DNA of 63,831 nucleotides, filler included, from Folioceros fuciformis (GCA_049999805.1; 5 parts of 5 records of this genome joined end to end with filler, not necessarily neighbours in it); one strand, 5' to 3'. Shown: positions 262 through 30,422, numbered from the whole stretch's first letter. Program-made: numbers and translations. The notes: a model not told the origin generated them from the letters alone.

Positions 262-640
262 CCTGAATAGGATTATCACAAGTTCAGTCCCACACATGAC
301 ACCTTATGAGGCATTCTGGCATAAGAAACCAAGTTTAGCACATCTAAGAGTTTTTGGATCTAAGGCTTTTGCTCTTATACCTGCTAAGAAACGTAAGAAA
401 CTTGACCCTAGGGCACAGGCTCTCATCTTTGTAGGCTACAGCGAACAAGCTAAAGCATACAAGCTATATAATCCTGATAAAGGAGATATTGTATTGGCAC
501 GTAGTGTGACATTTCTAGAAAGAAGTTCACCAGCCACATCAGATGATATACAAGTGGATACTGAGACAGATACCTCTACGGCTGAAGCAGCAGATTATCT
601 CCTTGATGACCCTGATGCGGATGAACCCAACCATCCCACA
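262..640 (+). pseudogene. Copia integrase C-terminal fragment
   Basis: LNRIITSS..TPYEAFWHKKPSLAHLRVFGS..LIFVGYSEQAKAYKLYNP..ARSVTF motifs in ORF 206-661. Confidence 0.85.
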
Positions 641-1252
641 ATTTCTTCGAGATGCATCTGAACTCCGATCTGTGGATAGCCGTCGCTCCTTCCCGCTGAC
701 CAAAAGTGGTGTGTGTTGGATCAGATTGGTGCAGGACGGGAGATGGTTGAACAGCGTCTGATGCCGGCAAGCAATCAAGGTTGGGAACCGGTGATCGGTG
801 GTAAGTTGGAGTCGGGCCTCCTCCACAGACACATCCACGGCAAGAGCCGCTAGCTGTCGTCTTTGCGATGGGAAAGCGGTCGAGATGTTGGGGCCGATAT
901 CCGGATTGTGCACGGCTATATGAAGTGAGTACCGCGTCTAGTAACGGAGGAACTCTACATCTCAGCGCGCGTTTGTCTTGGTAGCCATACCGTAGGGACT
1001 CCCCTTGATGAGTTCTCCTATGGTTGGCTCCCCGTCGCGGCATCGCTCATGTACAGGATCCAGAGCAAAGCTCTGATACCATGTAACTAAGTTGGCTTGA
1101 GCGGAAGCTAGTTGGAAAACTACTTTATTAATAAAAGTAAAGTCAATACAATACAATAGATTGCTTAAATACCAAAAGTCGGTGACGGTTCACTAATGCC
1201 TATTTATCAAAAAGATTAAATAAGGTAGTTAATGTTTATACTTATTTTAACA
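640..1252 (-). mobile_element. Truncated Copia-lineage element A: 5' LTR 1082-1252, tRNA-Met PBS 1070-1081, 5' accessory ORF remnant
   Basis: TG..CA 171-bp AT-rich segment next to GCTCTGATACCA (revcomp TGGTATCAGAGC); ORF starting MPRRG at 1043. Confidence 0.75.
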
Positions 1253-1729
1253 TCCTCTGATCTCTAAAGAGTCAATCCCGAGACAGGTAATCCCTAATTT
1301 GGTGATCCTGTTGGTAGAGTGGCCGAAGCAGTTCGGCACGCTCTCTGTCTCTGGACCAATTCAGATTGTGAAACCCCGTCCTGCCCACAAGAGAATATGC
1401 CAAGTCGTTAATCTCGGCTGGGACCGTCCTAGAGGCTTCATGTAGGTCGTCGCATCTGTAAGGACGCGAACCACGCCCCTGACCAACAGATCCGCCGCGC
1501 CGAGGCATTATCAACAACGAGAATAAAACATCAGAACCACGTGGCTCTGATACCATGTCAATTTGGGAGTCGCAAAAGGTGAGAGCCGCGGAGCGCAGAG
1601 CCCTTGTGCGTGCAAACTACCAAATGTAATTGATTATGAATAATAAACAAAATTGTCTTTAAGTATTATTTTATGCATAACCCTATTATTTTCTTAAGTT
1701 GGGTCGTATAGGGTTACCCCCCCTCAACA
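1253..1729 (-). mobile_element. Truncated Copia-lineage element B: 5' LTR 1556-1729, PBS 1544-1555, 5' accessory ORF (MPRRGG..., 1272-1508); interrupted by element A
   Basis: TG..CA 174-bp LTR, Met PBS, short ORF after the PBS. Confidence 0.75.
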
Positions 1730-2077
1730 AGGGTTTAGAAGTGAAGAGTGAGTTGCTGAGGTGCAGGAGTGTGTGCTGAAGTGAAGGGTGAAGGGTTGAA
1801 GTGAAGAAGGAAGGACTGAAGTGGGAATCATGAAGAGCTGAAGGACTGAAGATCTGGAGTGTGAGTTGTGTGAGCTTATTTGAAGATAGGCTAGGCTTCT
1901 GGCCTCTTCATTGTGTGTGTGTGGTCAGGCCTATAGACCGGCTGATAGGTAGAAGTGTGAGTAGATAGCTGTAGGTGTTCCTTGACACTAGTTCACTCCC
2001 TTGGGAGCGAATCATAAGATTGCAACGACAATAAGGGGAGGTGTGGCCCTTTGGTCGTTCTTGGGTGCAAGAAATCA
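1730..2077. mobile_element. Probable LTR fragment of another family inserted into the RT of element C
   Basis: GA/GT-rich non-coding stretch ending ...GCAAGAAATCA exactly where the Copia RT frame (ISCKWVVK) breaks off. Confidence 0.5.
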
Positions 2078-5036
2078 CTTCACAACCCATTTACAAGAGA
2101 TAGGTTTTCTACCCTTTGGCAACTCCTCCAAAGTCCAGGTTCCATTTTTAACTACGGATGCATACTCCTCCTCTACAGCCTTCTTCCACTGTCTTGCCTC
2201 AGGTCCTGAATATGCTTGTTGCATAGAGACTGGTTCAACAGAATCCAAGGTGGATGCCACCATGGCTTGAACAAACCACATGGACGGGGTTGCATCCCCA
2301 GCTGAAACTACATCTTCATTGTCCACCTTAGCAGGTGCTCGTACTGGTGCCGGTGCCCCCACTACAGGCACTTCCAAGGTAACGACACTACCAGCATTCG
2401 ACTTGCCTCCCTTTTGCTTCTGTAATCTAGTAACCCTAGCAGGCCTCCAGTCTTCCATCTCAAGGGGAGGCTCCTTCCACGGCCTGTTTCGTTCACGCAG
2501 ATTGTATGTACTTCTCACTTGTGAAGCAAGTACATCAGCAATGGGTACCTCCTCTATGGGCTCTGCTGCTTCCAATCCTTCTGTATAGGTGTCAGGTGAT
2601 ATACTATCACCCTCGACTGTAGTCTCAATATCATGACCATCATCATCCTCGCAAAATTGACCAAAAAATGAAACTTCAAACTGATCTACATCAGCACGGC
2701 TCAGCATGGATGCCCCATCGACTGGATCATCCTCGTCGAGGTCCTCAACTGTCTCAGGTAGAACATTTTCACCTCTGTCTGAATCAATGGAGACAGTAGG
2801 TGGATGCATCACTCGTCGTTCATCGAAAACTACACTACGTGCATGACTGACAATGCATGCCTCAGGGTCATAAAGCTTATAAGCTTTGATGCCATCAATG
2901 TAACCTATGAACACTAACTTGTGTGCCCTGTCGTGCAGCTTCGTTGTCCTTTTAGGCTTTGGAACAAACGCATATGCTGGAGCTCTGAAAATGCAAAGGT
3001 GCTGGATTGCTGCTTTTCGTCCCCACCACGCCTCAAATGGCGTCTTGCCAGGTGACACTCGAGTAGGCAACCTGTTGAGCAGGTAGTTAGCAGTGTTCAT
3101 GGCCTCAGCCCAATATCGCCTAGGAAGCCTAGCCTGCTTAAGCAAAGCCTGAGCAGTTTCTTGCAACAGCTGATTCTTCTTCTCTGCAACGCCGTTGAGC
3201 TGAGCTGTGTAGGGGACTGTGAGCTGCTTCGTGATGCCAAGATCCCGACAATACACTTTAAACTCGCCAGAGATGTACTCCCCACCATTGTCGGATTGGA
3301 GGCTTTGCAAACTATGGCCAGTCTGCCGCTCACCCATGTGCAAGAAATCTTTGAAGTGCTAAAGGGTTTCACTCTTGTACTTTAGTATGTACAGAGTGTA
3401 GTAGCGAGTGAAATCATCAATAAAAGTGAGGAAATATGACCCACCACCAATGGAAGGTACTGAAATCAGGCCACATATATCCGAATGCATGAGTTCTAGA
3501 GGTGTGGAGGCACGATGAGCACGTGTCTTGTCAAAAACAGCCTCATGATGTTTCCCATAGATGCACGACTCACATAGTGGTAAGTCCCCCACTTGACCAG
3601 GTATCCCATCAGCATACAATGAGCTGTTCGACATTGCTGATAATTTTCTACCATGTGGATGTCTGCAGCGCAGATGCCAAAGCTGTCCACAATTATGCAC
3701 TTGTCTCCTTTGAATAGCACATTCAGAGTGGTGTTTGAAGTTAGCTTCCTTACTGATAGCAGTTCTTCGTGATTGCGGGAACGTGAAGAACGTCGTGCAG
3801 CACTAGAGTCTTGCCATGATGCAGGTGCAGGGTCACTATACCCATCCCAACTATGGGTAGTGAGCTCTCATCGCCTAAGAGTACGAACTGCATGTCCCTG
3901 TACTTCTCATACTCACTGAACGAGGACTTGCTGTGATAGATAGGCACAGATGCTCCATAGTCAACAAACCACGCTGAAGTATGCGTACCAGCCGTGGTCA
4001 ACCAAACTAAAAGTATCACTTGTGGGTTTTTCTTCTTAACAGCTTGCACAGTGTGCACCTCCGGAGAGCCTGCACCTTCCTTCTTAGGCTCACCAGCTTT
4101 GCGTTTCCGGCAATCTCGAGCCCAATGACCTGGTATGCCACAGCAATGGCAATTTCCAGCCTTCTTTTTACTTCCTGAAGTTTGTCCAGGAGCACTAGAA
4201 CTAGGTCTGCTGCCTTTGTTTGAGTTCCAGCCTCCACGTCCTCTTTGATACGGTTTGCCCCGTCCAACAAACAAGGCTTGTTGGCCTTGTGTTTGCTATT
4301 TGCCAGATCTAGAGGACAGCCGCGTGGCTTCCTCTTGCAGCATGGCCCCAACGACACCGTTAAATGTCAAGGGTTCTGCATCATTCTTTAAGGCTTTCGA
4401 CAGCCGGGCCTCCACCTTTACCATCGCCTGCTGACCAATGACAAAGGGTCCAAATTTGGGTGGTAATGAACTCAACAGCCTGCAACTAGCTTCGTAGTCA
4501 GTAATCTTTACACCCGTGGAACATAGCTTAGCTCGTGCAATTCTGAATCTCCCGATGTAGTGCTCCACAGTCTCACCTTCTGTCATTCTAAGGCTGTGGT
4601 ACCTTGCTGATGCAGACATAGACGCAGCCATATCATGGGAGGCGAACATCATTGCTAAATGATCCCACATCTCCTTTGCTGAGTCTCTAGGCCCATCTGA
4701 GGCCTGTCTAATCATTTTAGGACCCAGACCTGAACGAATCAGGTTCCTTGCACGGATATCAGCCAAAGTCCATACTGGTAGGTCGGCAGAACTGACATAA
4801 GGCTTCTCTATCTCTCCGCTCACAACATGCCAAAGATTCTTTTCTTCAAGCGCACCTTGCATGCGCATTACCCAGATGTCATATTCAGCACTAGTCACCA
4901 GACGGTCTTTCTCCTTAAACCCACCGCTGGTAAGTGACTGCAACACGTTGAGCATGTCTTCTCTAGCCTTCTCCTCCTCATCCATGTTGGTACGACTAAA
5001 CCAAACTGTATCTCTTTCTAACAGGTCTGTGTTCAC
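2075..5036 (-). pseudogene. Disrupted Copia gag-pol polyprotein of element C
   Basis: ORF pieces 4296-5036, 3750-4274, 3359-3700, 2075-3343 in Copia domain order, separated by a TAG and frameshifts. Confidence 0.9.
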
Positions 5037-6349
5037 AGATGCACGGGTGGAATCTACATCTGTACTCCTAATTGACTCACTATCTCAAGACTCTATAACA
5101 CCGACTTCCTGTGCTAAATGACAAAGCCAGGCAGGTGTTCTGTAAGAATGACTCTCGCTCATCTGTCACAGCTACCAGCATTGTTTGACTCAACTTGTTT
5201 CTGTTGACAGTGAATGCAGACTGTACGGTTTTCATTAGCAGCCAAGGACTGAGTGATCTTTGTATGTTCCAGGATGTGGGACTTGGCCAAGACAAACAAC
5301 TTCACATCCAATGGCTGTAGGTAGGATTCTAGTCTAGCCACTTGATCGGTTGACAGGATATGCTGGGTGCGACACAATGCTGTGCTGTTAATGTTATCGA
5401 GGCGTTGGGATAGATTTTGAACAGACACACGAAGCGACTCAACTTGACCTCTTCTCAACACTGACTCTGAATGACGCTGTGCAACAGGCTCTCGTCGACT
5501 GTACGACAGTGACCTACGATAGTGATGGATGCTTGGATTTGCCATAGCAAGATTCGGGATCCTCTGAGGCTGAGTGCACCTGTCTCGGGTCACTGAAATA
5601 TTGGTCACTTCATAAGGAGGGACGAATTGGGGCATGCTCCTCTGATTGCGCCTACTGGAACGATGGCGTTGTGCCATCCTAGGAACAAGGTACGCTGACC
5701 TCCCTAGTTCCTTTACTTGCAGGCTCTGAATTTTGACTTGCCATCCTCAACCCTTGCACCTTTGCTGCACTCGCTAGCAGTTGCAGTGTACACCTGCTGA
5801 CCTCCAGACCGCACTGCACAAGAAAATCAAGATCGTCGATGGGCAATCTTGACACGCTTGTGGATGTGAACCGCACTCTTCTTTCGTTGCTGCTCGTTGC
5901 GCCACAACACAACACTCACTACTTGCTCGATCATGAAGCCTAATTCCGGGTTCATGAATTGACAAAGGAACAACATCCAGCCAACCCACTGATTAAGGGG
6001 AAGGCTGCCCATAGCGTAAGTCGTTCTTGATTGACTAACCACTTTGCAGGGCGTTGGTGCTATCCATGTGCTTCCTGTCAAAGTGATAGAAAAAAGGCTG
6101 CGCCTCAATAGAGGGTGCAGGGATTGCATCAATGCCTAGTCAAGGCTCTGATACCATAACGCGGTGTACACAAAATACAAGGTTGCATAAAAGAAAAATA
6201 GCGCACATAGTTCTTGTAGGTTCGTGCGTGCGCGTGCGGGTGACACACGACGGTTATTCGTGTAACTACCTTCTAACCCTAACTACTTATTTTAGGTTAG
6301 CTATTTGACATTATTTTACGCTTTATAAGGAGGGCCGAATATCTCAACA
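2078..6349 (-). mobile_element. Copia element C (3'-truncated): 5' LTR 6157-6349, PBS 6145-6156, accessory ORF, gag-PR-INT-start of RT
   Basis: Met PBS; gag (FKEKDRL..), CCHC knuckle CHCCGIPGHWARDC, protease WFVDYGAS, integrase (SDNGGEY), RT start (GTWTLEELPKGRKPISCKWV). Confidence 0.9.
5159..5677 (-). CDS. Accessory ORF (172 aa) between PBS and gag of element C; Arg-rich N-terminus, helical C-half
   Basis: Open ATG ORF MAQRHRSSRRNQR...; same position as ORFs in elements A, B, D, E, H. Confidence 0.55.
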   Translation of the reverse strand: MAQRHRSSRRNQRSMPQFVPPYEVTNISVTRDRCTQPQRIPNLAMANPSIHHYRRSLSYSRREPVAQRHSESVLRRGQVESLRVSVQNLSQRLDNINSTALCRTQHILSTDQVARLESYLQPLDVKLFVLAKSHILEHTKITQSLAANENRTVCIHCQQKQVESNNAGSCDR

Positions 6350-7283
6350 TTGGGGTGGTCAACCCAGTTGCCAAGATGAAAGTCTTGCATGCTCAGTGGG
6401 TTGTCAGGGCGGCGGATCCTGCCTACTACCCCTGGAAGAGCCTGCTAACACAACATCTGGAGTGCACCCAAGCTGTACCTAGGGGAAGGAGGTCTATCGA
6501 CAACATCCTTGCTGATAAACCACTTCTTGATACGGTAGAGTGCTCCCCACTATTCAAGTCAATTTGGAGTAGCTACTTAGAGGTTAAGCGGTACATTATC
6601 CCTAGTAACCCTGTGCATGTTGATGATGTTCTGGGTGTTCCTTTGCAAGGTTTCTCAAGGTTGTGGGCTCAAGAGTTTAGGGCAAGGGTGTATCGGTCAC
6701 AGATCTTTGGATTGGCGGGTTGGCATGGAATAATCCAACTTGGTCACTTATGGAACAGAACATAGGTCCGTTGGAAGGAGGTGGAGGAAGTCAAGGGTGA
6801 ATTTGGATTAGTAACTAGACGTGTTAGCCTCAATTTTTTCATGGCTGCAAGAGGGGTTAGAGGATAAGGTACAACAGGTGTTAAGGCAACAACCTACCCG
6901 GGCACCGAGGGGTGGTATGCGTACTCCATGGATAGTAAGGGAGTCAACTCTGAAGAGGAAGAGCAGGAGGATGACCTAGATTTGGATAGGGTTGTTTCGC
7001 TTACAGGTACGGTTGACAAAGAAGAATTGCAGTCATTCAAGGTCTTGTTGCCGGAAGAGCTTTTGGAAGATCAGGGCAGGGATGATGGTGATATCCGAAG
7101 AGGGGAACTAAGGGCCATCACATTCCTCTCAAAGTCTGTTCGCACAAGGTGGTGGTGCACTCAAGTCGAACGTTCTAGTGGGCCACAAGCCTCGGTCAAA
7201 CCAATCGTGCGATGTTGGTTTCGGCTCGCCGAAAATTGGGATTTGGCCTTAAAACCAGATCTCTGCAAATGGCCCAAGAGGCC
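6350..7283 (+). mobile_element. L1-like LINE ORF2 post-RT region (left part), degenerate
   Basis: LGVVNPVAKMKVLHAQWVVR...WKSLL resembles the post-RT segment of plant LINEs; continues after the Copia insertion at 13336. Confidence 0.65.
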
Positions 7284-7971
7284 TGTTGCGTTTGTGAATT
7301 GAGGTGAAGCAGATCGTGTACGCACGAGAGACACAAAGATCGAATATTTTTCAAGTTTGGTGAACTTGGCATAAGTTGTCCAGACACATGAAACGGTTAT
7401 AACTAATAACTAATAACTAACTGAAGAGTGCCCTAATTATAGGTCTCATGTATATAGCAATGTATCTAAATAATAAACAATTATTTCTAACACCCCCTCT
7501 CATTGTATATACGTCCAGCAGATTAATGAAGAGTAAATAGCTGGATTTAAAACAGAAACATGCAAGCCCTATGACGGGTACTTAACACACGCTAGCCCCG
7601 TAGACAATATTCTCTCAGTCTTATGCCCACAAGCGTGTTAGGTGTTTGCCCACTGTTATTGTGGTTTGACCTACTACTGAGATACTCATCTTGTCCAACT
7701 GTCAGTGTCTAGAGAAAGGATGGCGGAGGAGTCTGGCATGGTTTGGATGGATGAAGACGAAGACGAATCTGCGGAGGATACACCTGACTTCGATCCAAAC
7801 TTCATTGAACTCTAGAAAATAAGCAAGAGAGGAAAATCAAAGGCCCTGTGTCCCCCCTCTTCTTCTGAAGGTTCTGAAGAGTTCTGACCACTCTCTAAGT
7901 CGGTCAAATAGGTAGGAGCTAGCATTAGATGAATCCCAACACATCTACCTACAGACTCCTCAGACAAACTC

Positions 7972-10900
7972 TTACTTTTTGTGGGACACGTTCTGTGTGT
8001 GAAGGGGTCCTAAGACACCCAATGCCTCCTTGAACTGATAGTGCTTCAACCTGGGTAAGGCCTTTGTAAGCAAATCTGCAGCATTTGAGTCAGTTGGCAC
8101 ATACTCTAACCTGACCTGTTTGGTTTCAACAGCATGCCTTATGAAATGATGATGAACTTCCACATGTTTCGTTCTGGCATGAAATACTGGATTTTGTGCC
8201 AACGCAAGTGCAGACTGATTGTCACAAAATATAACAGTTGGTTCCTTTTGTGGCTGTCCAAGATCTGAGAGAAGTCTACGCAGCCAAATTGCCTCTTTAG
8301 AAGCTTGTGTCAAGGCAGAGTATTCCGCCTCTATTGATGAGAGTGACATAGTTGTTTGTTTCTTTGAGGACCATGTAACAGCTCCTCCAGCCAACAGGAA
8401 AGCATAGGCTGACACAGACTTCCTCGTGTCAAGATCAGCGGCCCAGTCGGCATCGCAATAGCCGACCAGTGTAAGCTCCTCCCCTTCAAACCTTTGTTTT
8501 GAATAGTGTATGCCATGGTCACTTGTGCCTTTCAGATATCGTAAAATTCGCTTAGCTGCTGACCAGTGTACTCTTCCTGGATTCTTGAGGTGCTGAGAGA
8601 CCATGCTGACTGGAAGGGCAACATCCGGCCTGCTGTTGTTGGAGCAATAGATAAGAGATCCAACGGCCTGTGCATAAGGGACCGACTCCATCTCTTGTTT
8701 ATCAGCATCAGTCACTGGAGATTGAGAAGTCAATTTTGCAGCCAGTCTCGAGAGGTGTAACTGCTGTCTTTGCCTCCTCGAGCTTATATTTAAACAGCAT
8801 GTCCAAAATATACTTCTGCTGATGTATTACAAGTGTACCACTGACAGGGTCGCGAAAGAGCTGTGTGCCAAGACAATAGGACAACTCCCCGACATCAACC
8901 ATATCAAAGCGACCAAACAGCAGGACTTTCACTCCGGTAATTCCCTCTATATCAGTCCCTAGCAAAATGCAATCATCAACGTAAAGTGCTAGTATGACAA
9001 AGCCTGTTTGATCTTGCAGGACATAAACATTAGAGTCAGCTGTGCTTTTAAGGAAACCTAGTCCTAACAAAAACTCGTCTATACATTCATACCATGCGCG
9101 TGGACTCTGTTTTAAGCCGTAGATTGTCTTTAGCAACTGACAGACCCAATCCTCTTTCCCCTCAACCTCATATCCCTCAGGCTGTCGCATGAATATGTCT
9201 TCCTCTAATTTCCCATGGAGAAAGGCGGTCTTGACATCCATTTGGTGGATGAAAAGGCCGAAGAATGCAGACATGGAAAAGAGGACACGAAGGGATTGCA
9301 ACTTAACAACAGGACTAAACGTATCATGATAGTCTAAACCAGGAACTTGGGAAAATCCACGAGCGACTAACCTGGCCTTATACCTGGAGATAGAGCCATC
9401 CGCCTTATATTTTAGCTTGAACACCCACTTTGAGGTGACAATTTTCCTCCCCTTAGGCGGAGGAACGATCTTCCAAATATTATTCTGAATCAGAGAGTCG
9501 TATTCAGACTATATGGCAGCTTGCCAGAGCTTGGCCTCGGGCCCACTAACAGCTTCCTTGTAACTTTGTGGTTCATAGCCAGGTTCGAACGCCAAGTTAA
9601 CCATGTCAATCACGACTTCGTCTGCTGCTGAACCATGAGGACGAGGAACCTTCCTGAAGTCTTCACTGCGGTAAGGGGGCTCCTTCCAAGCTTCACGTGG
9701 CCTGTGCACTCTACCTGATCGTCTGAGTGGTGCTGGTGCAGGTTGAGGAACGGGCATAACGTACTCAACAGGATCATCTTCAAACCAATCAGGGTTGGGA
9801 ATGTGAGCAAGATGTGGGACCACAGGAGCTTCAAGCTCATCATCTGACTAAGCATGTGCAACTTGTTCAGGAGGAACCTCATCATCATAAGACTGATCAA
9901 AAAAATCACCTGGATCAGCATCACGGGCCTGCTGTGGATTGACTGGAGGTAAGGTACCATCTGGAACAGGCTCTGTATAAGAAGGATCAGACTCTGGAAA
10001 CGTGACAAAATCTGAATCACTAACTGTATCATCTGTCTGTACAGGCTGGACATCAACCTCTACTACATCAGGATCTGAAAAATCATCTGGAGATTGAGCT
10101 GGGGGTTGAAGGACAGACCTTTCATCAAAAGCAATTGTCCTAGCATGGGATACTCTACGAGTAGTTGGATCAAACAACTTATAGCCATGGATGCCGGCTG
10201 TGTAACCTATAAAGATGTGACGTTTTGATTTATAGGCAAACTTGTGACGTAGTTTATCAGGCACATGGGCATACGCAATGCTGCCAAAAACTCTGATGTG
10301 AGACAGATCTGGTTTACAACCGGTCCAAGCCTCAAAAGGGGTACAGCAACGCAGGGATGAGGCAGCCGACCGATTTTGCAGGTATGTAGCAACTTGAACT
10401 GCCTCTGCCCAAAATCTAACTGACAACCTGCCTTGATACAGGAGTGAACGTGCAGCATCTTGGATGGTTCGGTGCCTACGCTTAGCTCGACCATTCATGT
10501 CAGAATGATATGGTATGGTAAGTTGTCGAGTTATCCCCCTCTCCTGGCAATAATCTTGAAAAGCTAAAGACAAGTACTCTTTGCCGTTATCAGATCTAAT
10601 GCATTTCAGCTTGTAACCAGTCTGTCTTTCTACATATGCTAGGTACCGCTTGAAGCTAGAGAACACGTCACTCTTGTGACGTAATAATTCAGTCACTGTA
10701 AAATGTGACTTATCATCCTCAAATACCACAAAGTACTTTGCTCCACCCCAGGAGGGCACTGACATCGGGCCACATATGTCGGTATGGACAAGATCAAGAA
10801 TATATGTGGCTTTCCTTGATTTCCCACTACCAAAGTGGGACTTGAACTGCTTCCCATGTATACAGGCTACACATTGCTCAAGGTCAGTAAGTTCATGTTC

Positions 10901-12454
10901 ACTGAAACCAGTCACCATTTTTTCTCGTAGTAATCTCCTCATTGCCTGTATGTTAGGGTGACCCAAACGACACTGCCACTTGAAAGCATTACTGGAGTGT
11001 GCTGCCTCAGCGCTCAAATCAGTTACATTTGCTGTTGATGGTGGAACATCAGACACGAAGTCCAGCAAGTACAGATCGAACAAGGGAGTTCCCCGAGCAA
11101 TGACTACTGAGGGATCTGATAGTCGAGATATCTAACATTCAATGCCTTCAAAAGTAATCCTGTACTGATTCATCTTACCAAGAGCCATTGTACTCACCAA
11201 ATTCTTAGCCAGAGCTGGAACATGAAGGGCATTCACCAAAAGTAAGTAACTGCCATCCCTAAGAGTGATTTGAATCGTTCCAGCACCTTTTATAGGAATC
11301 GTTGAGTTGTCTCCTAATACAACAGCTGTTTGATGGCATGTGGGAGATCTCTCGTATGTGATGAAGGACTTCCGCTTCGAACACATATGATTGGAGGCTC
11401 CACTATCAAGGAACCACTTCTGACAGCCTTCCTTTGAAGACGTAAGACACGCCACCAACAGAACTGGAGTTGAAGCTCTAGTTGTGTGAGCTTTTGATGA
11501 TCTCCCCTTTGCACTGTCGTCCTTTGCTTTCTTTCGACAGTCCTTTACCCAATGGCCGGGTTTTCCACAATAATTGCAGTTTCCAGGCTTGGATGTAGAA
11601 TTAGAAGATGGCTGGCCAGGAGCAGAAGAGGATGTGGGCTGTGTGCCGGACTGACCTCACCCCCTGCCAAAGCCTCCCCTTCCTCTCCCTCTCCCTCTAC
11701 CTTTACCTCGACCCCATCCAGAGAACAAAGCCGTATCGCTTTGTTTATGAGGAGTATGAGGTGAGGATGAACCACCCTTCATCTGTCTTCTGTTGGCTTC
11801 AAACTGGAGTAGAGCACCTACTACCTTCTCAACTGTAAGGTTTGAAGTTGCAAGAGTGGTTGCTGTGGCTGGCACTGTTTGGGCGGACATTTGCAAACTT
11901 GAACTAAAGTATTCATAGCTTGGTGGAAGTGAAAGTAGCAGCTGTATGGCTGCTCTTGATTCAGAAATGATGACTCCACAAGAAGCAAGTTTGGCTCTCA
12001 CAACTCGAAACTTTGAAATATGACTCTCGACACAGTCATTTTCCTTCATGCGAAGTGTCTGGTACTTCAGAGTGGCTGCAGCCTCAGCTACCATGTCCTT
12101 AGTATCATAAGTAGATGATAGCAATGACCAGACCTCAGATGAGGTCTGCGTCATTCTTATATGTGGTATCATTTCTTGTGACACGGAAGCAACAAGGATA
12201 TTTCTTGCCTTCCTGTCCTTTGTCTTCCAATCTAACTCATCCTTTTGTGTCCATGTAGGAACAGTGCCGCCAGGAGTGGGAGGACCAGAGGGCTGTCCAG
12301 CAACTTTCTTCGGAACAGACCCATCTACTATTTCCATCAGAGTCTTTTCTTCAAGGATGCAACGCACCCTAAAGCTCCAGGCATCGTAATTGTGAGAGGT
12401 CAAGCGATCCTTCTCTTGCAACCTGTCGGATCCAGAATCATCCTTCGACCCCAT
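7972..12454 (-). pseudogene. Gag-PR-INT-RT-RH polyprotein of element D with four in-frame stops and one frameshift
   Basis: In-frame pieces 11657-12454, 11132-11458, 9848-11083, 9509-9823, 8708-9424, then a frameshift to 7972-8733; motifs WFLDSGAS, HTDICGP, LYVDDC, YCDADWA. Confidence 0.95.
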
Positions 12455-12480
12455 GATGCCTGTGAGTAAGAACCTCTGAT

Positions 12481-12990
12481 TTAGAGTGGTGAAGCCGTCA
12501 CGCGAGCAAGCTGCTCCCTGAGGCTTTCAATATCCTTTTCCTGCTGTGCCATTATGTTTAGATCTGAACATCTCAGAGTCTCAAGCCGCTCTTGTCTTGC
12601 CTGCAGGTTATCAGCCCTAGTAGTATACTCCAGAACAGTGCTCCGAATGTTGAGAATAGAATTCAGAATGGCATCGTGCTCTGTAAATTTCTCCGGATAA
12701 GGTTTTGAGAGATGTTGACAGGCACTAGACGACGCAGGATTAGATTGTGGATTCCTGCTAGCTGTCCTTCTCCTGAGTGGAGGCACCAATTTCGAATCTG
12801 AATCGTGGCTGTCCTCAGCAGGAAATTGTGAATCAAGAAAGACGTTGAGAAAGCGCTCTCTCTCGATCCGTTCTGCAGCAGATACTCCTTTCTTAAAATG
12901 CTTCTTCTCAAATGCTGTCAATATGGACTGTCTGAACTTTCCCTTATCAAAATCAGACCAGGACTGCCTGAGAGTATTTCTTCGAGGCAT
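12481..12990 (-). CDS. Accessory ORF (169 aa) upstream of gag in element D; basic N-terminus, coiled-coil-like C-terminus
   Basis: Uninterrupted MPRRNTLRQ...LQARQERLETLR...EKDIESLREQLARV; stop lies 26 bp before the gag ATG. Confidence 0.65.
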   Translation of the reverse strand: MPRRNTLRQSWSDFDKGKFRQSILTAFEKKHFKKGVSAAERIERERFLNVFLDSQFPAEDSHDSDSKLVPPLRRRTASRNPQSNPASSSACQHLSKPYPEKFTEHDAILNSILNIRSTVLEYTTRADNLQARQERLETLRCSDLNIMAQQEKDIESLREQLARVTASPL

Positions 12991-13335
12991 CCTGCCTGTT
13001 AAGTAGCTAGGGTTTCAGCAGCCCTGGGTGTGGTGTAGAACCCATCGCTCAAAACAGCAAGTAGGTATGGCACAACAGATGGATCTAAGATTCAGGCCCG
13101 CACATGGCTCTGATACCATGTTGCGTTTGTGAATTGAGGTGAAGCAGATCGTGTACGCACGAGAGACACAAAGATCGAATATTTTTCAAGTCTGGTGAAC
13201 TTGGCATAAGTTGTCCAAGACACATGAAACGGTTATAACTAATAACTAATAACTAATAACTAACTGAAGAGTGCCCTAATTATAGGTCTCATGTATATAG
13301 CAATGTATCTAAATAATAAACAATTATTTCTAACA

Positions 13336-14285
13336 AGGCCAGGGTGCAAGGCGGTCAACCTTTGGTCCTTCTTCAACTTCCCAACGGCGGACTTCCTCTG
13401 GATGGTACGAGCGTAGAAACTCAAGCAACGGCAACCAATGGCTCCCAAGTTACAGTTATCTATGAGGTGACAAAGGGAAGCTATCAAGTTGCTTTGGAAG
13501 TCAGTAGGTATTCCTCTCAAGGTTAGGGCGACAGTTTGGTGTTTTTTTCAAGCTTGTTTGCCTAATGCGGATCGTTGGGACGGGTTGTTGGTTGCTATGG
13601 GAGAAGACCAGTGTTGGCTATGCTCCACTGGTGCCCCAAGTAAAAGCCAGCACATGTTCTTCCACTGCAATTTCGCCCAAGAGATATGGAGTGAGGTGGG
13701 CAGCTGGTTGCAAAGGATTCTCCCTAACACCAACCTCAGGATCACGAAACATACTGCCCTCTTTGGGTTGGATTCAACCTCGGGTAAAGCTCTACTTCAG
13801 GTGCAATGGTGGGGTTTACTTTGGTCTTCTTGCCTTTTTCATCTTTGGGTCAACTGGTCTGCCGTGGTCTATGGAGGCAAGGAGCCAGCCTCGTCTAAGG
13901 CTCTACTTTGGCGCCTTTGGGAGCATATTTTGATTGCGGCAGAAAATCTGAGGCAATCCCATCGGAAACAATTCAAGCATAGCGAATGGAGGTCGGCAGG
14001 CTTCCTAGGTACTGGGAATACCGATCACTGGAATCACGCTTGCCCTTGGGGAAGGTGAGCCCATGGCCCTCGGGGGATTTTGAGGGTTATGATTGGATGG
14101 TCTTAGCAATCTGTTAATATCAAGGTGGTGGGGAGCTCTCTTTCCTCACCTTGTTCAGAGGGCTGGGCACGAGGTCATTTTTCTCCTGATCTTGTGCTCA
14201 TGATATGTATATACGTATTCAAGGGTCCCCTGAGTATTGTAAGAGGACGGGTATATTAATCTGAATATTTTCTTCACGAAAAAAA
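13336..14285 (+). mobile_element. L1-like LINE 3' end: zf-RVT-type zinc-binding region, 3' UTR and short poly(A)
   Basis: LWKSVGIPLKVRATVW...CWLC..SQHMFFHCNFAQEIW (CCHC); A7 tract at 14279-14285 abutting a Tork-like gag. Confidence 0.8.
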
Positions 14286-16764: not shown

Positions 16765-17161
16765 TAAACCGTGTGAGCATGGACTCTACAACCTCAAGCC
16801 GGAGCAGAATCATGTCTGTAGCAAATGGATCCGACATAAGGTAAGGTTGCTCTTCAGCAATTCTCTGCCCTCCTCTTGCAAATGCAAGTAGCTCCTCGTC
16901 TTCACCAATTCGCTGCTCCAAACGGTCTAGCAAGCGCTGGCAATGTGCTGCCACACGGCCTTCAAAACTGTTTGGGGAAGCTGATGCTGCTGCAGCACGA
17001 ATGCTGTGATTTCTCCTAGCACGCATTCCATCTCTGTCAGCAATCCAGCCATTTGTTATCAGCTCATTGTGGCGCCTTTGGATGTACTCCTCCCTGGCTA
17101 GAGCTCTAGAAGAATTGTTGATAGGTGGACTTCCCCAACGTCGTCCTTTTCTCCTAGGCAT
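16765..17161 (-). CDS. Accessory ORF of element H (partial, >130 aa)
   Basis: MPRRKGRRWGSPP...HCQRLLDRLEQRIGEDEELL; open up to the gap. Confidence 0.55.
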
Positions 17162-17545
17162 TTTTCCAGGCTAGGATGCTAGTATTCATCTAGCAATATT
17201 CTTATTGTTTACTACACATGTGTGCAGGCAGGCAAACCCGCGTCATCATCAGACACATGCATCTATCTAATGATAAATGTAGATGTTCGATGATAACCCT
17301 GTTTCGCTTGCCATGCTCTACATGAATTTAGCTACGTGCCTAGCTAAAGTAAACAAAGTGCAGCGGAAAGATCAGAGACACAGCTCTGATACCATGACAC
17401 GAATTAGAGAACACACACAAACATGTACTCAACTGAATGATTAATTAAATTAATGAACAAAATTGTGTCTTATATACTGTGTTAAATATAAACCCTAATC
17501 GTTAACTATGTGAGGTTAACTAACCAAGAGTAACAAACTCTAACA
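16765..17545 (-). mobile_element. Copia-lineage element H 5' end: LTR 17395-17545, PBS 17383-17394, accessory ORF; inserted into the Athila-like pol
   Basis: 151-bp TG..CA LTR, Met PBS, ORF MPRRKGRR at 17161 running into the gap. Confidence 0.8.
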
Positions 17546-23795: not shown

Positions 23796-24114
23796 TGTCA
23801 AACTAGCGGAAGCTTGTGTTGTAAAAATGATACAACAGAATTAATTAAAATCAGAGCAAGAGTATGTTTATACAAAAATTCATGTCTGTAGAGTTAGGGT
23901 TGTATAAACCCTGGTAACCTAAACCAGGTAGGGTTAAATAACCCTTCAACACCCCCACTTAAACCTAACTGGTTTAAAAAACGAGATTCCTATCGAGTAC
24001 ACTTCATAAAACTCAGCAACTTCGATCATTGCCCTTGCTCTCACGGGAATCCCGACTCTGGACTTCATATACTTCATTTGTTTCCTGTGAGGAAGAGCAG
24101 CTGCACTGTGCAGG

Positions 24115-24462
24115 ATGAAGACCCGGTCTGGAACTTCCATTGGAGAGGGGGACAACGACGAGGCAAAATCACAGCAGAGGGCAAGGGCCAGCAGCGCGTT
24201 GGAAGACCCAGACCTCAAGAGCTCAGACGATGGAGCAGATAGCAAGATGCACACTGCCCAAATTCTGTCCAACCTAACCAAGGACATGAATACTGCACTG
24301 GCAGCCTTGGACGAGGTGGAAAAACTTGTAGACCTCAAGAGGGAGGAAGTAGCTAGGCAACTAGCTAAGCTTATCTCAGAAGTGTCTACCCAGCGGGAAT
24401 CCAAGAACAGTAAGAAGCGTACTGGTGAGGAACTGTATGAGGTATGTGTTGTTCTTGTTTAG
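24115..24462 (+). CDS. Antisense ORF (115 aa, coiled-coil-like) in the 3' region of element E
   Basis: Open ATG ORF between pol stop and 3' LTR; heptad-like ILSNLTKDMNTALAALDEVEKLVDLKREEVARQLAKLISEV. Confidence 0.5.
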   Translation: MKTRSGTSIGEGDNDEAKSQQRARASSALEDPDLKSSDDGADSKMHTAQILSNLTKDMNTALAALDEVEKLVDLKREEVARQLAKLISEVSTQRESKNSKKRTGEELYEVCVVLV

Positions 24463-24731
24463 AATTTTTGCTGTCATCTACTCACGACTTGACAAGACGT
24501 GGAGCTTCATCCTCTGAGATGTGACAGCCAAACTAATAGAAGGCCTGTGTAAAGTCTGAACAGGAAGGCTATGCGCCTCGGCCATGATGGGAGAGCAAAG
24601 ACTGAAGACTGAAGTACTCCTGCACACAAGGTTTAGCTACGAAGTGTGCAAAGGATAGAAAATAGTAAACAGGCTAAAGCTAGTCCCACTTCAAATTTCT
24701 GCTGCTCAGACAATTGCCTTCAACCTGCTGG

Positions 24732-27700
24732 TTACAGTACAAACTCACGCAGACCTAGGGCTGCAAGATGTTGGAAATGCTTGGCTTTGGACAGACCCTT
24801 GGTAAAAATGTCCGCTGTGTTTTCATGTGTACTCACATACTCAACCTTCACGACCCCTCGTTCAGCCACATCTCTTATGTAGTGGTAGTATAGCTTAATA
24901 TGCTTTGTTCGGGCATGAAACCTAGGGTTTGCCACTAGAGCAATTGTGCTCATATTATCACAATATAACATAGTGGGTTCCTTCTGTTGCTGTTGTACTG
25001 ATTCCAGGAATTGCCTCTGCCATTCAGCCTCCTTACAAGCATCAGTCAAGGCTTTGTATTCAGCCTCTGTGGAGGAAAGGGCTAGGGAGGCCTACTTTTT
25101 GCAACTCCAGCTCACAGCTCCAGAGGATAGTAGAAAACAATAGGCCGAGAGGCTCTTTCTGGTATCAGCATCAGAGGCCCAGTCGGCATCTGCGAAGGAG
25201 GTAAGTACCATGCAGCTGTTCCCACTTGATGAATATTGCAATCCATAGTTGATGGTGCCTTTAAGGTACCGATAAATCCTCTTCACAGCAGCCCAGTGTG
25301 CCCTGCCAGGTTGTTGCAGAAACTGGGACACCACACTAACAGAGAAGCTGATATCGGGGCGGGTCCAATTTGCAAGGAAGATTAGACAGCCCACTGCCTC
25401 GGCATAAGGTACGATACTCATGTCTTCAGCCTCACGTTGTGTTTGTGGAGACTGTGCAGATGTCAGCTTTTCCCCCACTGCCGAGGGAGTGGCTACAGGA
25501 CGAGCATCCTGAAGGTTAAACCGCCTCAAAATCTCCTTAAGGTATTTCGTCTGGTGTAGGGTGATAGTACCAGCGAACCTATTACGGAGGATTTGTATGC
25601 CTAAACAAAACTGCAAGTCCCCTTGGTCAGTCATTTCAAAGGCCTGTCTAAGCATATCTTTAACCTTGGCTAACTGTTCTGTGCTATTGCTTAGCAGAAC
25701 ACAGTCGTCTACATATAAGGCCAAGATTACAAAGAGGGCTCCAGCAACAAGAAGAAAGACGTTGCTATCGGCAGGAGATTGAAGAAACCCGAGTTCCTTA
25801 AGGTACTTAGTAATCCTCTTGTACCACGCTCTGGGGGACTGCTTAAGTCCATAAATGGTCTTAAGTAGCTTGCAGACCTTTTTAACCCATTTTTTATTAA
25901 CGTACCCCTCAGGTTGTTCCATGTACAGCGTTTCTTCCAACTCTCCGTGGAGGAATGCAGTACAAACATCCATTTGCTGCACTTCAAGATCAAACTCGGC
26001 TGCCAAAGCAAGAAGGATGCGCACTGAGGATGGTTTGACAACAGGTGAGAACGTGTCCCCGTAGTCAATGCCTGGAACCTGACTAAAGCCACGAGCAACT
26101 AGTCTAGATTTATATCTGGCTACTGTACCATCAGCCTTAAGTTTTGTTTTGAATAGCCATTTACAGCTGATCGGTTTTCTCCCAGGTGGAAGATCAACTA
26201 GCTCCCAGGTGCCATTTTTGATAAGAGACTGGTACTCATCCTCAATCGAGACATGCCATTTGTCACCATCAGGTCCATTTACAGCCTCATCATAAGACTG
26301 AGGATCAGGTCTAACATCGGGAATGTGAAGATCAGACACCTGAACAGAAGGCCTGCGAAAATCCAAGGACTGGTAAGGAGGTTCAACCCACTGCTCACGA
26401 GATCTGCGTTCCCTTAGATTATAACGAGATTGTTGATCAGCAGCTGGTTGTTGTTGGGGTGTAGGCTTAGGCTCGTCAGAGTGAGCAGACTGTGCATCAT
26501 CTGCATCACTGTCCAGGGTGATAACATCTTCAGATTCATGTAAGGAAGCCTGGTACTCAGCAATTTCCCCCACTTCAGGGGCAAGAGGTATGTCCTCATC
26601 AGCTGCATTCAGACCATCCTCTGTAGGGCCTTCACCATCTGACTGAGGATATTGATGAGGTTCAACGTCAGGGTCTAAAGTTCATGTAATTTCATCTTCA
26701 GAAGGGGTAACTTGGATTGGGTCTATACTCTTATCAGGTGGAATATCATATTCAGGAAGGGCTCGAGACTGAGTAAGTTCACTCACAACCACGCTCCTTG
26801 CAAGAACAACCTTTGAAGTGATCTTATCATAGAGTTTATACGCCTTTGATTCCTCAGAATATCCTAGGAAAATAAGGGGGACAGACCTGTTGTCTAATTT
26901 GTTACGTTTTGCTTCTGGAACATAGGCAAATGCAGGTGATCCAAAAACTCGCAAGTGTAACAAACTAGGTTTTCTGCCCCAAAAGGCCTCATGAGGAGTA
27001 CAACCAGGCAAGGCTGAGGTAACCACTCTGTTCAAAATGTAAGTAGCAGTCACGATTGCCTCTGCCCAGAATTTCTTGGAAATGCCAGCCCAGGACAGCA
27101 TACTTTTTGTCATGCCCATGAGTGTCTGGTTTTTCCTCTCAGCAACTTCGTTCTGCTGTTGAGTATAAGGAACCAAGAGTTGTCTCACAATGCCAAACTG
27201 CTCAAACAGGTTGTCATACTTATGTCCTGTGAACTCCCCTCCATTATCTGTTCTGAAACACTTTACTAAGCAGCCTGTTTGGCGTTGCACCATAGGAATC
27301 CAGGCAGAGATGGTATCGAAGACTTCACTCTTCAGTTTTAGAGGGAACGTCCACGTATACCTCGAATAGTCATCGGTGAGAGTAAGGTAATATTCGGCAC
27401 CACCAAGTGACTTCACATGTAATTTGCCAGCAATGTCTGCATGAATTAACTCCAGAACTGCTTTAGCACGTGTTGGATTCTTGTTCTTAAACGGAAGCTC
27501 CTTCTGTTTTGACAGAATACAAGAACTGCAAGGGGCAAGATGTTTAAAACAAGACGGGAGTCGTTCCCGATAACAATCAGAGATAGACATGAAATCGAGC
27601 TTTGCCTTGTTGACGTGTCCCAGCCTTGCATGCCACAGTACAGCATGAGTGTGATGCGTAGACGTAAGTGCCCTAGCATGAACTTTTGCTGCTGTAACTA

Positions 27701-29051
27701 ATTGGTATAGGTCGTTAACAAGAATTGCTTTTGCTACGTGTGTATTAGGATCAGAAGGGTGATAAAGGTAACACTTTCTATCCTTGAAGCAAAAGACTAA
27801 GTGCTGATTTTGAGCTACGGCTCTGATGGACAGTAAATTCTTGGACATAGAGGGAACATACAAGACATCATGCAAACGCAAAGACTTGCCGTCTGCCAGA
27901 GGTAATATAACTGTCCCACTACCCTTTACCTCCACTCCACGAGAATCTCCAACGTATACTAACTCTGGTGTGTTCCCCCTCTGCTTGTGGAAGGTGGAGA
28001 ACAGCTCCTTGTTATTGCACACATGGGCAGTAGCACCAGAATCAACAAACCAGGAGGAAGAAGTCTCCTTGGATGAGGTGAGGCACACAATCAGGACTGT
28101 GCTGCTGCTCTTAGATTGTCCAGAACTCTTGTTGTCTTTGGAAGTCACATGGGCCTCAGATCTAGGATCTTTCTTGGGTTCCCCCGCTTTTTTCTTCCGA
28201 CAGTCACGTTCCCAGTGACCTTGTATTTGGCACCAGTTGCAATTCCCTCGCCTTTTGATGCTGGTCGAGGTGTTAGAAGGAGGTGAGTTAGAACTCTTCT
28301 TGCCTTTCTGTTTACCCCGGCCAAGGTTTTTGCCTTTTGCAGCAAAGAGCACTTTCTCCCCACGGATGCGAGAGGAAGTCCCTATTTTCTGTCGGCTCTG
28401 CTCTTCTTGCAGGAGAGCACCGACCACACTATTGAAGGTTAGTTTGGGTGGTTTCTGTGCAGCAACAGCAACGTATGAATCCTGTAAGGCCGCATTCTGA
28501 CTGGAGATGAAATTCTGAAAGCTTGCAGGCAGGCTGGATAGGATTTGAGCAACCGCATCCACCTCCGACATAGTACTCCCCAGAGTAGTCAGCTGTGACC
28601 TCATGTGTCTGAACTTGACCACATGAGGTCCCACAGCATCTCCATCACGAAGTTTGAGACCAAAGAATTCATTACGAGCAGCTACAAGTGTAAGAATATT
28701 CTGTACTTGGTATGTATCCTTCAATTGAGCCCAGACGTCAGCAGCAGTTGGTAAGGATTCAACCTCAGTTATTGTGGTTTCGTCCAGTCCAGAAAGAAGA
28801 ATTGCAAAAGCCACCTTGTTGCCTTTCATCCACTTATCCACATCTGCCTGTGTGACTCCAGGTTGAGTGATATCAGGTTTGGTAAGAGTACCATCAACGT
28901 ATTCCCACATGTCCCGAGCATCAAGAAAAGCCTTCATCCTGGCCCTCCAACTTTCAAATCGAATAGCTTTGCCAACAAACCTGTCCTTCTCCTTAAAATC
29001 GCCTGAATATGTGACTCCAACAGAGGTAGACATTTGTGAAGCAGACGCCAT
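24732..29051 (-). pseudogene. Gag-pol polyprotein of element E; one frame with only two premature stops (TGA 26682, TAG 25092)
   Basis: ORFs 26682-29051, 25092-26573 and 24732-25049 share a frame; all Copia domains present. Confidence 0.95.
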
Positions 29052-29674
29052 ATTGATTTGTGAAAGTGGATGTGGGTTTGAGTTTAATCTGTGACCCCTA
29101 CTTCTGATTCTCTCTGAATGGATTCCAAGCTACAAACAGAGAGAATACTGACCATTGATTCTGTGGATGAATCAGGGACAGAAGAACATGGGACAGAAGA
29201 CTCCTCACAGGAGGAAAGGGAAGGAGTCACCAACGTGCTATTCAGACATGCTCTAACAGAGAAGACAACTGAACATGAGCAGGTTAGCGCAACAAAACCC
29301 TAAAAACAAAAAAACGAAACGTTACTTAGGGTTTACTAATGGCAGTTGGATGTCAGCTGACCCTAAAACGAAAATTAAAGGGGTGCAACTAACACTGAAC
29401 CGACGGGTTTGCTGAGGCAGGTGTGCTGAGATGGCGAGGTAGCGAGAAGACAAGTCTGACGTGCCCAGCGCTTGAGATCCTCTCCAAGTGATCGCCAGAA
29501 AGGTACTCCCTTCAGCGCGCCTGTTCAGATCTGGTTACATAATTTTCAGAGAGGAACCTGATCAGGGAGTGGACCAGGAACAGGTACTGATCCGATCTGA
29601 ATGTCAGCAATCCCTGATGAATTCATCCGATTTACTGCAGAAGATTCACCCAAAGACAAGGCCGCCACTACTCC

Positions 29675-30091
29675 TCAAAGATCCCAGACTTGTTTTGCAA
29701 GGATTCGATAGTACTGCTTTTGCGTGGACAATGTGGTCAAACAGTGTTCTTCAAGCCTTGAGAATTTGTCCAGACAGGTAGCCTCAAACGAGTTGACCCT
29801 GGCTAACAAGGTAAGAGATGACGGGGAGAGATTGTCAAAATTGGGAATTGAGAGCTGCTTAACAGCAGCTGACTCTGTATTCCTTTTTCTCGAATTTTCT
29901 CTGTTCCTGACAACACCTGTTGGTCTGGATATTCTCTCCATGTAGGTGTGCCTGCAATCGCAGAAACAGCTGGGGTCTGTGATCCAGCAGTGTGGCGGTG
30001 GAGATCTCCTCAGCCCACCCTTGCAAGTGCGGCTAGCAGATTGAGAGGGGAGGCCTACACAACACCTGGATCCTCCGCCTCCTCGTGCCAT
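29675..30091 (-). CDS. Accessory ORF upstream of gag in element E (138 aa; probably continued past a TGA)
   Basis: Between PBS and gag; basic segment RNRENSRKRN then amphipathic helix LLARVNSFEATCLDKFSRLEEHCL. Confidence 0.45.
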   Translation of the reverse strand: MARGGGGSRCCVGLPSQSASRTCKGGLRRSPPPHCWITDPSCFCDCRHTYMERISRPTGVVRNRENSRKRNTESAAVKQLSIPNFDNLSPSSLTLLARVNSFEATCLDKFSRLEEHCLTTLSTQKQYYRILAKQVWDL

Positions 30092-30422
30092 AGCTCACAA
30101 CATCCAGAATCATTTGCAGGAAGGGAGACAGGGTCTTCAACAAAGTTCATCCAGCATCCGGAGATGTTGCTGAACTCTGTTGAATTCCCAGCCGCTCTTC
30201 CTACTTGTCCAGATTTTTATTCATAGGAATTAGATTCTCATCTATATACACATGGCTCTGATACCATGTCAAACTAGCGGAAGCTTGTGTTGTAAAAATG
30301 ATACAACAGAATTAATTAAAATCAGAGCAAGAGTATGTTTATACAAAAATTCATGTCTGTAGAGTTAGGGTTGTATAAACCCTGGTAACCTAAACCAGGT
30401 TGGGTTAAATAACCCTTCAACA

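Follow-up and report, generated by a model that had tools for sequence, protein, structure and literature searches.

Extra open reading frames (ORFs) ahead of gag are best known from plant retrotransposons of the Gypsy class, in which the Tekay elements RIRE3, RIRE8, and Retrosat-2 and the ORF1 of Ogre elements place a sense ORF between the LTR (long terminal repeat) at the 5′ end, with its primer-binding site (PBS), and gag (PMC11728184, PMC6317226). The encoded proteins, as described in the main texts of these reports, have basic stretches that resemble nuclear localization signals (NLSs), a few helices, and long disordered segments, and they show no similarity across species (PMC11728184, PMC7264820). 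For Copia elements, the only characteristic extra ORF described in the main text of the one systematic survey, by Neumann et al. (2019), which counted only extra ORFs of at least 250 codons (582 Copia elements, 45 groups), is the 3′ ORF of SIRE, highly heterogeneous in sequence (PMC6317226). Here, we analyze a 63,831-bp stretch of DNA from Folioceros fuciformis (GCA_049999805.1; hereafter, the window), which is land-plant DNA rich in transposable elements (TEs), and in which six Ty1/copia elements (A, B, C, D, E, and H) each carry a sense ORF, termed ORF0, downstream of the PBS. We put at roughly 0.55 the probability of ORF0 being a genuine accessory cistron on the 5′ side, between PBS and gag, at least in the elements whose ORF opens with Met-Pro-Arg-Arg (MPRR).

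The likeness between ORF0 and the Tekay and Ogre ORFs, as far as the published texts portray the latter, extends from position to character: biased composition, basic stretches of the NLS type, helices, disorder, and no amino acid similarity between hosts. The differences are equally plain. Tekay and Ogre are Gypsy elements, with reverse transcriptase (RT) and RNase H (RH) ahead of integrase (INT), whereas the present elements have the Copia order INT-RT-RH. The Gypsy ORFs described are mostly much longer (in sunflower Tekay, ∼400 aa), and a plant mobile domain is often part of Ogre ORF1, whereas the ORFs of the window encode 78–172 aa, have no Pfam domain, and in four cases share the MPRR start. 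Because of the Copia domain order and the lack of a Pfam domain in ORF0, the likeness is one of analogy and not of membership. SIRE (Maximus) elements differ in another way, in that their extra ORF lies 3′ of pol and the present ORF 5′ of gag; no sense ORF of at least 80 aa is found between RNase H and the 3′ LTR of element D, so the SIRE/Maximus feature is absent there. SIRE elements are also large and have long LTRs, whereas the elements described here measure 6.0–6.6 kb with LTRs of 151–217 bp. According to an earlier note on this DNA, Gypsy elements (Ogre) are the typical carriers of 5′ extra ORFs and those of Copia are usually 3′, as in SIRE, which agrees with the main text of PMC6317226; ORFs of the present size lie outside the reach of that survey because of its threshold of at least 250 codons. 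Full-text searches of the literature turned up no Copia element described as having a small sense ORF at its 5′ end, and the supplementary tables of PMC6317226, which give extra-ORF positions for each lineage, may hold 5′ Copia cases of at least 250 codons. ORF0 is best filed as resembling in kind the 5′ extra ORFs of Gypsy Tekay and Ogre, in a form not described for Copia in the texts searched.

The Ty1/copia insertions are stacked in the first 31 kb of the window, on the minus strand throughout (the strand of all features below unless marked as plus). Exact copies of the PBS complementary to initiator tRNA-Met, TGGTATCAGAGC, are located at 1081 (A), 1555 (B), 6156 (C), 13118 (D), 17394 (E), and 30266 (H), next to 5′ LTRs of 171, 174, 193, 217, 151, and 156 bp, respectively. 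All six LTRs start with TGTT; five end with CA, and that of C ends with TA. The six minus-strand Copia 5′ ends listed in the earlier note, with their short LTRs, exact PBS, and a sense ORF, are thus all present at the positions given there. A seventh exact PBS, at 15101, is that of element G, which comes from another Copia family; J, at 35557, is a further copy of that family, on the plus strand.

The best-supported copy of ORF0 is that of D (12481–12990), which encodes 169 aa starting MPRRNTLRQ and begins 128 nt after the PBS. Two ATGs lie between the PBS and its start, and a third is made by the LTR/PBS junction; gag begins 26 nt past the ORF0 stop, in another frame. In E, the ORF (16765–17161) starts with MPRRKGRR 233 nt after the PBS and runs for at least 132 aa before it is truncated by a run of Ns. 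ORF0 of B (1272–1508) encodes 78 aa with the start MPRRGGSVG, 47 nt after the PBS, and reaches a stop of its own 24 nt ahead of the LTR of the inserted element A. The ORF of A itself (576–1043) encodes 155 aa beginning MPRRGANHRR, 38 nt after the PBS; it overlaps an antisense Copia integrase fragment (263–661, plus strand), so that the part belonging to it comprises ∼662–1043, or ∼127 codons. Neither A nor B has a gag in the window. The leader ORF of C (5159–5677) encodes 172 aa with the start MAQRHRSSRR; 479 nt separate it from the PBS and 173 nt from gag. That of H, the weakest case, lies at 29675–30091, encodes 138 aa beginning MARGGGGSR, starts 175 nt past the PBS, and stops 623 nt short of gag. 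The MPRR start that the earlier note had reported for four ORFs is indeed shared by A, B, D, and E, and the N-termini are basic, as also claimed. The placement of the ORF upstream of, and separate from, gag had been asserted for C, D, and E; it stands for C and D and falls for E, for which no gag match was found in the window beyond the N run at 16665–16764. The elements in which this arrangement can be read are therefore C, D, and H.

Whether such ORFs exceed chance was assessed by comparing the longest sense ORF in each leader with 2000 dinucleotide-preserving shuffles of that leader. An ORF as long as that of C (172 aa) was reached in 0 of 2000 shuffles (p < 0.0005), and the corresponding values were p = 0.0005 for D (169 aa), p = 0.0015 for E (at least 132 aa), and p = 0.023 for H (138 aa). 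The longest antisense ORFs in these leaders span 34–61 aa. The start itself is a second departure from expectation. A scan of both strands of the window recovered four 12-mers coding for MPRR, against ∼1 expected from composition, and all four lie 38–233 nt downstream of an initiator-Met PBS, where they open the ORFs of A, B, D, and E (78–169 codons). Their spellings (ATGCCGCGACGG, ATGCCTCGGCGC, ATGCCTCGAAGA, and ATGCCTAGGAGA) vary in the Pro and Arg codons, and the differences are synonymous only. Significant nucleotide similarity between the leaders is confined to the PBS region and a few adjoining bases, with none in the flanks of MPRR. The synonymous spelling and the lack of nucleotide similarity together place the conservation of the start in A, B, D, and E at the peptide level only. 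Starts of the broader form M[PA][RKQ][RKG] are found in 7 of the 160 ORFs of at least 60 aa in the window, six of these seven being in Copia leaders, and a purine occupies position −3 at all six ORF0 start codons.

For comparison, 80 Copia loci (494 kb) were retrieved from metagenome contigs by integrase alignment and used only as controls. Among them, no ORF of at least 60 aa has an M[PA][RKQ][RKG] start, and each of the seven MPRR sites present opens an ORF of at most 20 codons. A PBS is found upstream of the integrase match in 35 of the loci, and in 14 of these 35 the leader from PBS to gag measures 18–174 nt. In control loci with long apparent leaders, the long ORFs are pieces of gag or pol, identified by Pfam for L013, L025, and L059 and by the start of the sequence for the others; the longest ORF not recognizably gag or pol reaches at most 83 aa, and leaders of 600–1600 nt never hold a non-gag ORF above that size. 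Leader length alone thus does not bring a long ORF with it. Taken with the shuffles, these comparisons show that the leader ORFs are a recurrent, non-random feature of the present Copia leaders.

Two further sets of leader ORFs were considered as candidates for ORF0. The leader of control locus L057 contains a 74-aa ORF starting MPARAYTRRRP, which has no Pfam match and belongs to a typical angiosperm-type Copia. The elements J (35557–36540, plus strand) and G (14330–15101) have GC-rich leaders of ∼600–950 nt with Arg-rich ORFs of 53–73 aa (MAKRAGG.. in J, MPGGPE.. in G), which are not conserved between the two copies and were rejected as further members.

Coding potential was scored as an in-frame margin under a codon model trained on the gag-pol of the other elements. 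The margins are 0.20 for D, 0.14 for E, 0.135 for B, 0.084 for C, 0.012 for H, and −0.009 for A; true Copia gag-pol and Gypsy ORFs range from 0.14 to 0.29 and most junk ORFs from −0.23 to 0.10. By this measure D, E, and B resemble coding sequence and H and A do not, with C a borderline case. Three control ORFs also scored high (0.145, 0.211, and 0.237), two of which may be coding themselves. The highest-scoring of these, at 24115–24462 on the plus strand, is a 115-aa antisense ORF located in H after RNase H and ahead of the 3′ LTR. Its Pfam matches are sub-threshold only, and the sequence looks helical by eye; Gypsy elements are known to have 3′ antisense extra ORFs, and this may be one of that kind. 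That ORF0 of D is open despite five lesions in gag-pol (four in-frame stops and one frameshift) had been singled out in the earlier note. Both facts are correct, and the contrast between them is statistically not meaningful: it deserves little weight because only ∼0.6 lesions would be expected in 510 nt.

Structure prediction gave a defined picture for one copy. In the AlphaFold2 model of D ORF0, made without an alignment, residues 16–31 and 38–55 form helices, residues 56–99 a disordered linker, and residues 100–166 a single long helix with a predicted local distance difference test (pLDDT) score of 89–97. A homodimer prediction for residues 96–169 scored 0.27, against a mark of 0.32, which is evidence neither for nor against binding. 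A crude heptad score gave p = 0.037 for C, p = 0.15 for D, and nothing significant for the others, so that one ORF in six falls below 0.05. Of the heptad-like C-terminal helix proposed for most of the ORFs, the models bear out that of D only, in the form of the 67-residue helix, the model of C having a mean pLDDT of 38.9; with one confident and one low-confidence model, a common predicted fold among the ORFs is not borne out.

Several results weigh against ORF0 as a real extra cistron of these elements. BLASTP among the six ORFs returned nothing convincing, and in Smith-Waterman comparisons with shuffled sequences only 2 of the 15 pairs reached p < 0.05, the best z being 2.25. The proteins are, as the earlier note had it, poorly alignable: there is no significant pairwise similarity beyond the start. 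An RLE tripeptide, tried as a shared C-terminal motif (C, D, E, and H; four of six), was matched by 19% of shuffled sets and was discarded. The C model is of low confidence, as given above. Searches with D ORF0 found no relative among 1.84 billion representative proteins, where the two matches obtained are tandem-repeat proteins and artifacts; word-indexed protein searches with the D and E sequences found no homologue; the ESM Atlas had nothing at or above 0.9 for D and no usable match for C; and Foldseek gave no match of the D model to the PDB at E ≤ 0.001. Pfam searches of every ORF0 at E values up to 5 produced sub-threshold noise only and no domain, and specifically no RNA recognition motif, zinc knuckle, or other domain. 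Seven ATGs precede the ORF start in C and seven in H. The codon control is imperfect, two control ORFs (0.237 and 0.211) scoring as high as D, and H and A have no coding-like codon usage. The grouping of C, D, and H described below is flagged as a meeting of long branches, and the clade membership of A, B, and E is read from LTR and PBS architecture because these are 5′ fragments lacking gag. The evidence for a family is thus the MPRR start, common to four of six ORFs through synonymous codons, with no significant similarity past it. That all six ORFs are one family is possible, and it is less likely than an accessory cistron in the MPRR elements. C and H have an ORF in the same place with a similar, basic M-A-(Q/R)-(R/G) start, and they may or may not be homologous to the MPRR type.

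The strongest competing account accordingly concerns the limits of the family: the MPRR ORFs (those of A, B, D, and E) alone would make up a gene family, and the ORFs of C and H would be unrelated to it, being incidental, decayed, or independently arisen, with no single ORF defining the lineage. We regard this as a serious possibility that falls short of our favored explanation. C and H lack MPRR, have seven upstream ATGs each and a weak or absent coding signal, and show no similarity to D or E; in addition, the predicted fold of C is poor and the length of the H ORF reaches only p = 0.023. Such a division must nevertheless accommodate the fact that the C ORF is the longest of all relative to its shuffles (0/2000), that both C and H have a purine at −3 and a basic N-terminus opening with M-A-(Q/R)-(R/G), and that C, D, and H share a gag motif and an integrase grouping, D being of the MPRR type. 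Far less probable, we think, is that the ORFs are chance products or relics free of selection, long leaders simply happening to be open and MPRR being a coincidence. No homologues were found, A and H lack a coding signal, and the G/J Copia family shows that Arg-rich leader ORFs can occur unconserved between copies, all of which speaks for such an origin. Against it stand the shuffle tests, the location of all four MPRR sites of the window just past a PBS with synonymous spelling, and the control loci, in which leaders of 600–1600 nt contain no non-gag ORF above 83 aa.

Two other explanations accept that the ORF matters and deny it a separate protein function. In one, which we judge unlikely, it is a long upstream ORF that throttles gag-pol as a form of copy-number control, the peptide itself being functionless. 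The ORF does lie between cap and gag in C, D, and H, the 26-nt spacer of D has no ATG, ATGs between the two starts are below shuffle counts in D and H, and the bodies of the proteins are unalignable; yet an upstream ORF needs neither 130–170 codons nor an MPRR start kept through synonymous change, and gag-like codon usage and a confident 67-residue helix would be unexpected. The other would make ORF0 an alternative N-terminal extension of Gag, reached by frameshifting or splicing in the manner of glyco-Gag, and is the least probable of the explanations considered. The frame of gag relative to ORF0 is +2 in each of C, D, and H, the gag frame of D stays open over the 72 nt ahead of its ATG, where it overlaps the end of ORF0, and the heptamer ACAGGCA before both ATGs of D may resemble a 3′ splice site. 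In C and H, however, stops in the gag frame part ORF0 from gag, by 173 and 623 nt and without overlap, and no slippery heptamer was noticed by eye in the D overlap, where no scan was made. An accessory cistron, at least in the MPRR elements, remains the explanation that we prefer.

The elements that carry these ORFs differ in completeness. D is a complete element of ∼6.05 kb with a 5′ LTR at 13119–13335 (217 bp), a PBS at 13107–13118 in which the exact TGGTATCAGAGC abuts the LTR end CA, and a 3′ LTR at 7284–7492 (209 bp) with the polypurine tract GAGAGGGGG just upstream. The target-site duplication GGCCT flanks it at 13336–13340 and 7279–7283, and its LTRs differ by one mismatch and two indels. 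Gag of D (11657–12454) encodes 265 aa and matches Retrotran_gag_2 (Pfam E = 7.8e-33). D is inserted in a LINE-like repeat (LINE, long interspersed nuclear element; 6280–7283 and 13336–14183, plus strand) with a zf-RVT match at 13597–14058, and contigs from the DNA runs described below that join 7274 to 13338 and 7283 to 13354 are copies of this repeat without D. H is likewise complete (23796–30422) and is nested in another Copia element, I; its PBS (30255–30266) and 5′ LTR (30267–30422, 156 bp) are matched by a 3′ LTR at 23796–23951, with one mismatch in 156 positions, and its gag-pol (24734–29051) is a single frame of ∼1437 codons with two in-frame stops. In both D (7493–12454) and H (24734–29051), the LTR pairs are near-identical yet stops are present, and these do not fall at one shared gag/pol boundary, which suggests either that already-defective copies were mobilized in trans or that decay after insertion was fast.

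C is represented by its 5′ part, comprising the PBS (6145–6156), the LTR (6157–6349, 193 bp), the leader, gag (4296–4985, 229 aa; Retrotran_gag_2 E = 9.4e-24), protease (PR), and INT. B, with its PBS at 1544–1555 and LTR at 1556–1729 (174 bp), is inserted into C, and A, with its PBS at 1070–1081 and LTR at 1082–1252 (171 bp), is inserted in turn in the leader of B. E (PBS 17383–17394; LTR 17395–17545, 151 bp) is a 5′ fragment that sits within the pol gene of a Gypsy element and is cut by the N run at 16665–16764. The internal regions of A, B, and E are absent from the window. C, D, and H contain the Pfam families Retrotran_gag_2, Pol_BBD, gag_pre-integrs, rve, and SH3_retrovirus, and on the strand of the elements the integrase is found upstream of both RT and RNase H, which establishes the Copia order gag-PR-INT-RT-RH.

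C, D, and H are related, if distantly. Their gag proteins are 30–35% identical, D and H share ∼52% in RT, and the N-terminal gag motif FKEKDR is common to C, D, and H and to the host element I. In an integrase tree that includes the 80 metagenome Copia loci, C, D, and H group with a support of 93 in the Shimodaira-Hasegawa-like approximate likelihood ratio test (SH-aLRT), apart from those loci and from J, which is placed elsewhere and has 70% identity to L056. The sub-lineage proposed in the earlier note finds support insofar as the three elements stand apart in the tree, and is weakened by the long-branch warning. Residues 1–330 of the H gag have no homologue at E ≤ 1e-5, and a search with the gag alignment found no relative in metagenome or viral contigs.

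Public sequencing reads provide a view beyond the assembled copies. Two DNA runs contain the stretch, and in these D itself is at single-copy depth. A related genomic contig with 82% identity and ∼4 times the single-copy depth covers the start of the D gag and the C-terminal half of ORF0, and it also contains a 36-nt island around the ORF0 start, and the PBS, with a spacing of 426 nt, compared with 421 nt in D. The contig is thus a hint of a sister family in which the D-like layout and the ORF0 start are kept. A run that we take, by guess, to be RNA (X4) has no cover of D ORF0 and a 56-nt piece in the C ORF, and so provides no evidence either way. Run X3, from the same sample as the DNA runs, has a strong excess of C>T (601 places) and G>A (662 places) differences over 4200–16664, the pattern that a bisulfite-type library would give.

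Gypsy ORFs and LINE ORFs with zf-RVT are also present in the window, and the stretches 14184–14599 and 15016–15431, in or beside the LTR and leader of Copia G, reach a word depth of up to ∼36,000 in the DNA runs, against ∼10 for single-copy sequence, marking a very abundant repeat in the genome. The sole clear host gene noticed is a 499-aa ORF at 61227–62726 (plus strand) in which Pfam identifies a legume-lectin domain (E = 4e-33) and which probably belongs to a gene for a lectin receptor kinase. Masks at 16665–16764, 38567–38666, 49059–49158, and 62671–62770 look identical, each consisting of 44 Ns, 12 bases, and 44 Ns, and one of them interrupts the ORF of E. An Rfam search of the window found no family.

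On the reading of ORF0 as an accessory cistron, a deep clade of short-LTR, initiator-Met-primed Ty1/copia elements would carry an extra gene in its leader. ORF0 would come first among the long cistrons of the full-length genomic RNA, preceded in D only by short upstream ORFs, and its product would be a small basic protein of ∼130–170 aa. The N-terminus, rich in Pro-Arg-Arg, may serve as an arginine-rich arm for nucleic acid binding or nuclear targeting, to be followed by a disordered linker and a helical C-terminal part; the 67-residue helix modeled for D could self-associate. The most likely role for such a protein would be that of a cis-acting RNA-binding or chaperone cofactor for the element's own RNA. 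Translation of ORF0 would lower scanning-dependent translation of gag, in which case Gag-Pol would be made by reinitiation, by leaky scanning, or from a shorter or spliced RNA. The spacer of 26 nt between ORF0 and gag in D, which contains no ATG, would be compatible with reinitiation. The numbers of ATG triplets between the ORF0 and gag starts, three in D and seven in H, compare with ∼8.6 and ∼15.8 in shuffles, and in D the heptamer ACAGGCA precedes both the ORF0 and the gag ATG. The body of ORF0 presumably evolves too fast to be aligned across families in which Gag itself is only 30–35% identical.

This layout has analogues outside the Gypsy elements. Badnaviruses and tungroviruses (ORF I and ORF II) and cauliflower mosaic virus (CaMV; the virion-associated protein P3) encode small basic coiled-coil proteins that bind nucleic acids, 5′ of the capsid-polymerase polyprotein, and in pararetroviruses such small ORFs are located on a polycistronic pregenomic RNA and are expressed by leaky scanning or reinitiation. 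In LINEs, the bicistronic RNA opens with the cistron for the ORF1 protein (ORF1p), which forms a coiled-coil oligomer and binds and chaperones its own RNA in cis. ORF0 may be analogous in arrangement to the badnavirus and caulimovirus proteins and to LINE ORF1p. The pararetroviruses are episomal, however, and have neither LTRs nor integrase; no sequence or fold match links their proteins to ORF0, and the ATG depletion of the present elements is only partial. The comparison with LINE ORF1p is also one of analogy only, as the order of basic and helical parts differs, the class of element differs, and no domain is detected in ORF0. In its fullest form, the proposal is of an undescribed deep clade of plant Ty1/copia elements that is bicistronic, with a fast-evolving basic protein that has a strictly kept Pro-Arg-Arg N-terminus and a self-associating helical tail and whose target is either the element's own RNA or the silencing or nuclear machinery of the host. 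We put this forward tentatively, as a plausible outcome to which we give somewhat less than even odds.

Plant Copia elements are commonly viewed as minimal gag-pol machines, and a conserved small 5′ cistron would add a class of accessory gene to them. Such genes would escape TE annotation pipelines in which leaders are masked or ignored. Were the full proposal correct, the elements could be called 'complex' Copia, in likeness to the complex retroviruses and to pararetroviruses, and their ORFs would have been overlooked by surveys with a threshold of at least 250 codons. With a conserved 5′ cistron, the manner in which gag-pol is translated behind an ORF of 130–170 codons would become a question in its own right. 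The MPRR N-terminus would offer a handle for searching plant genomes and for probing ideas on RNA packaging, nuclear targeting, and anti-silencing.

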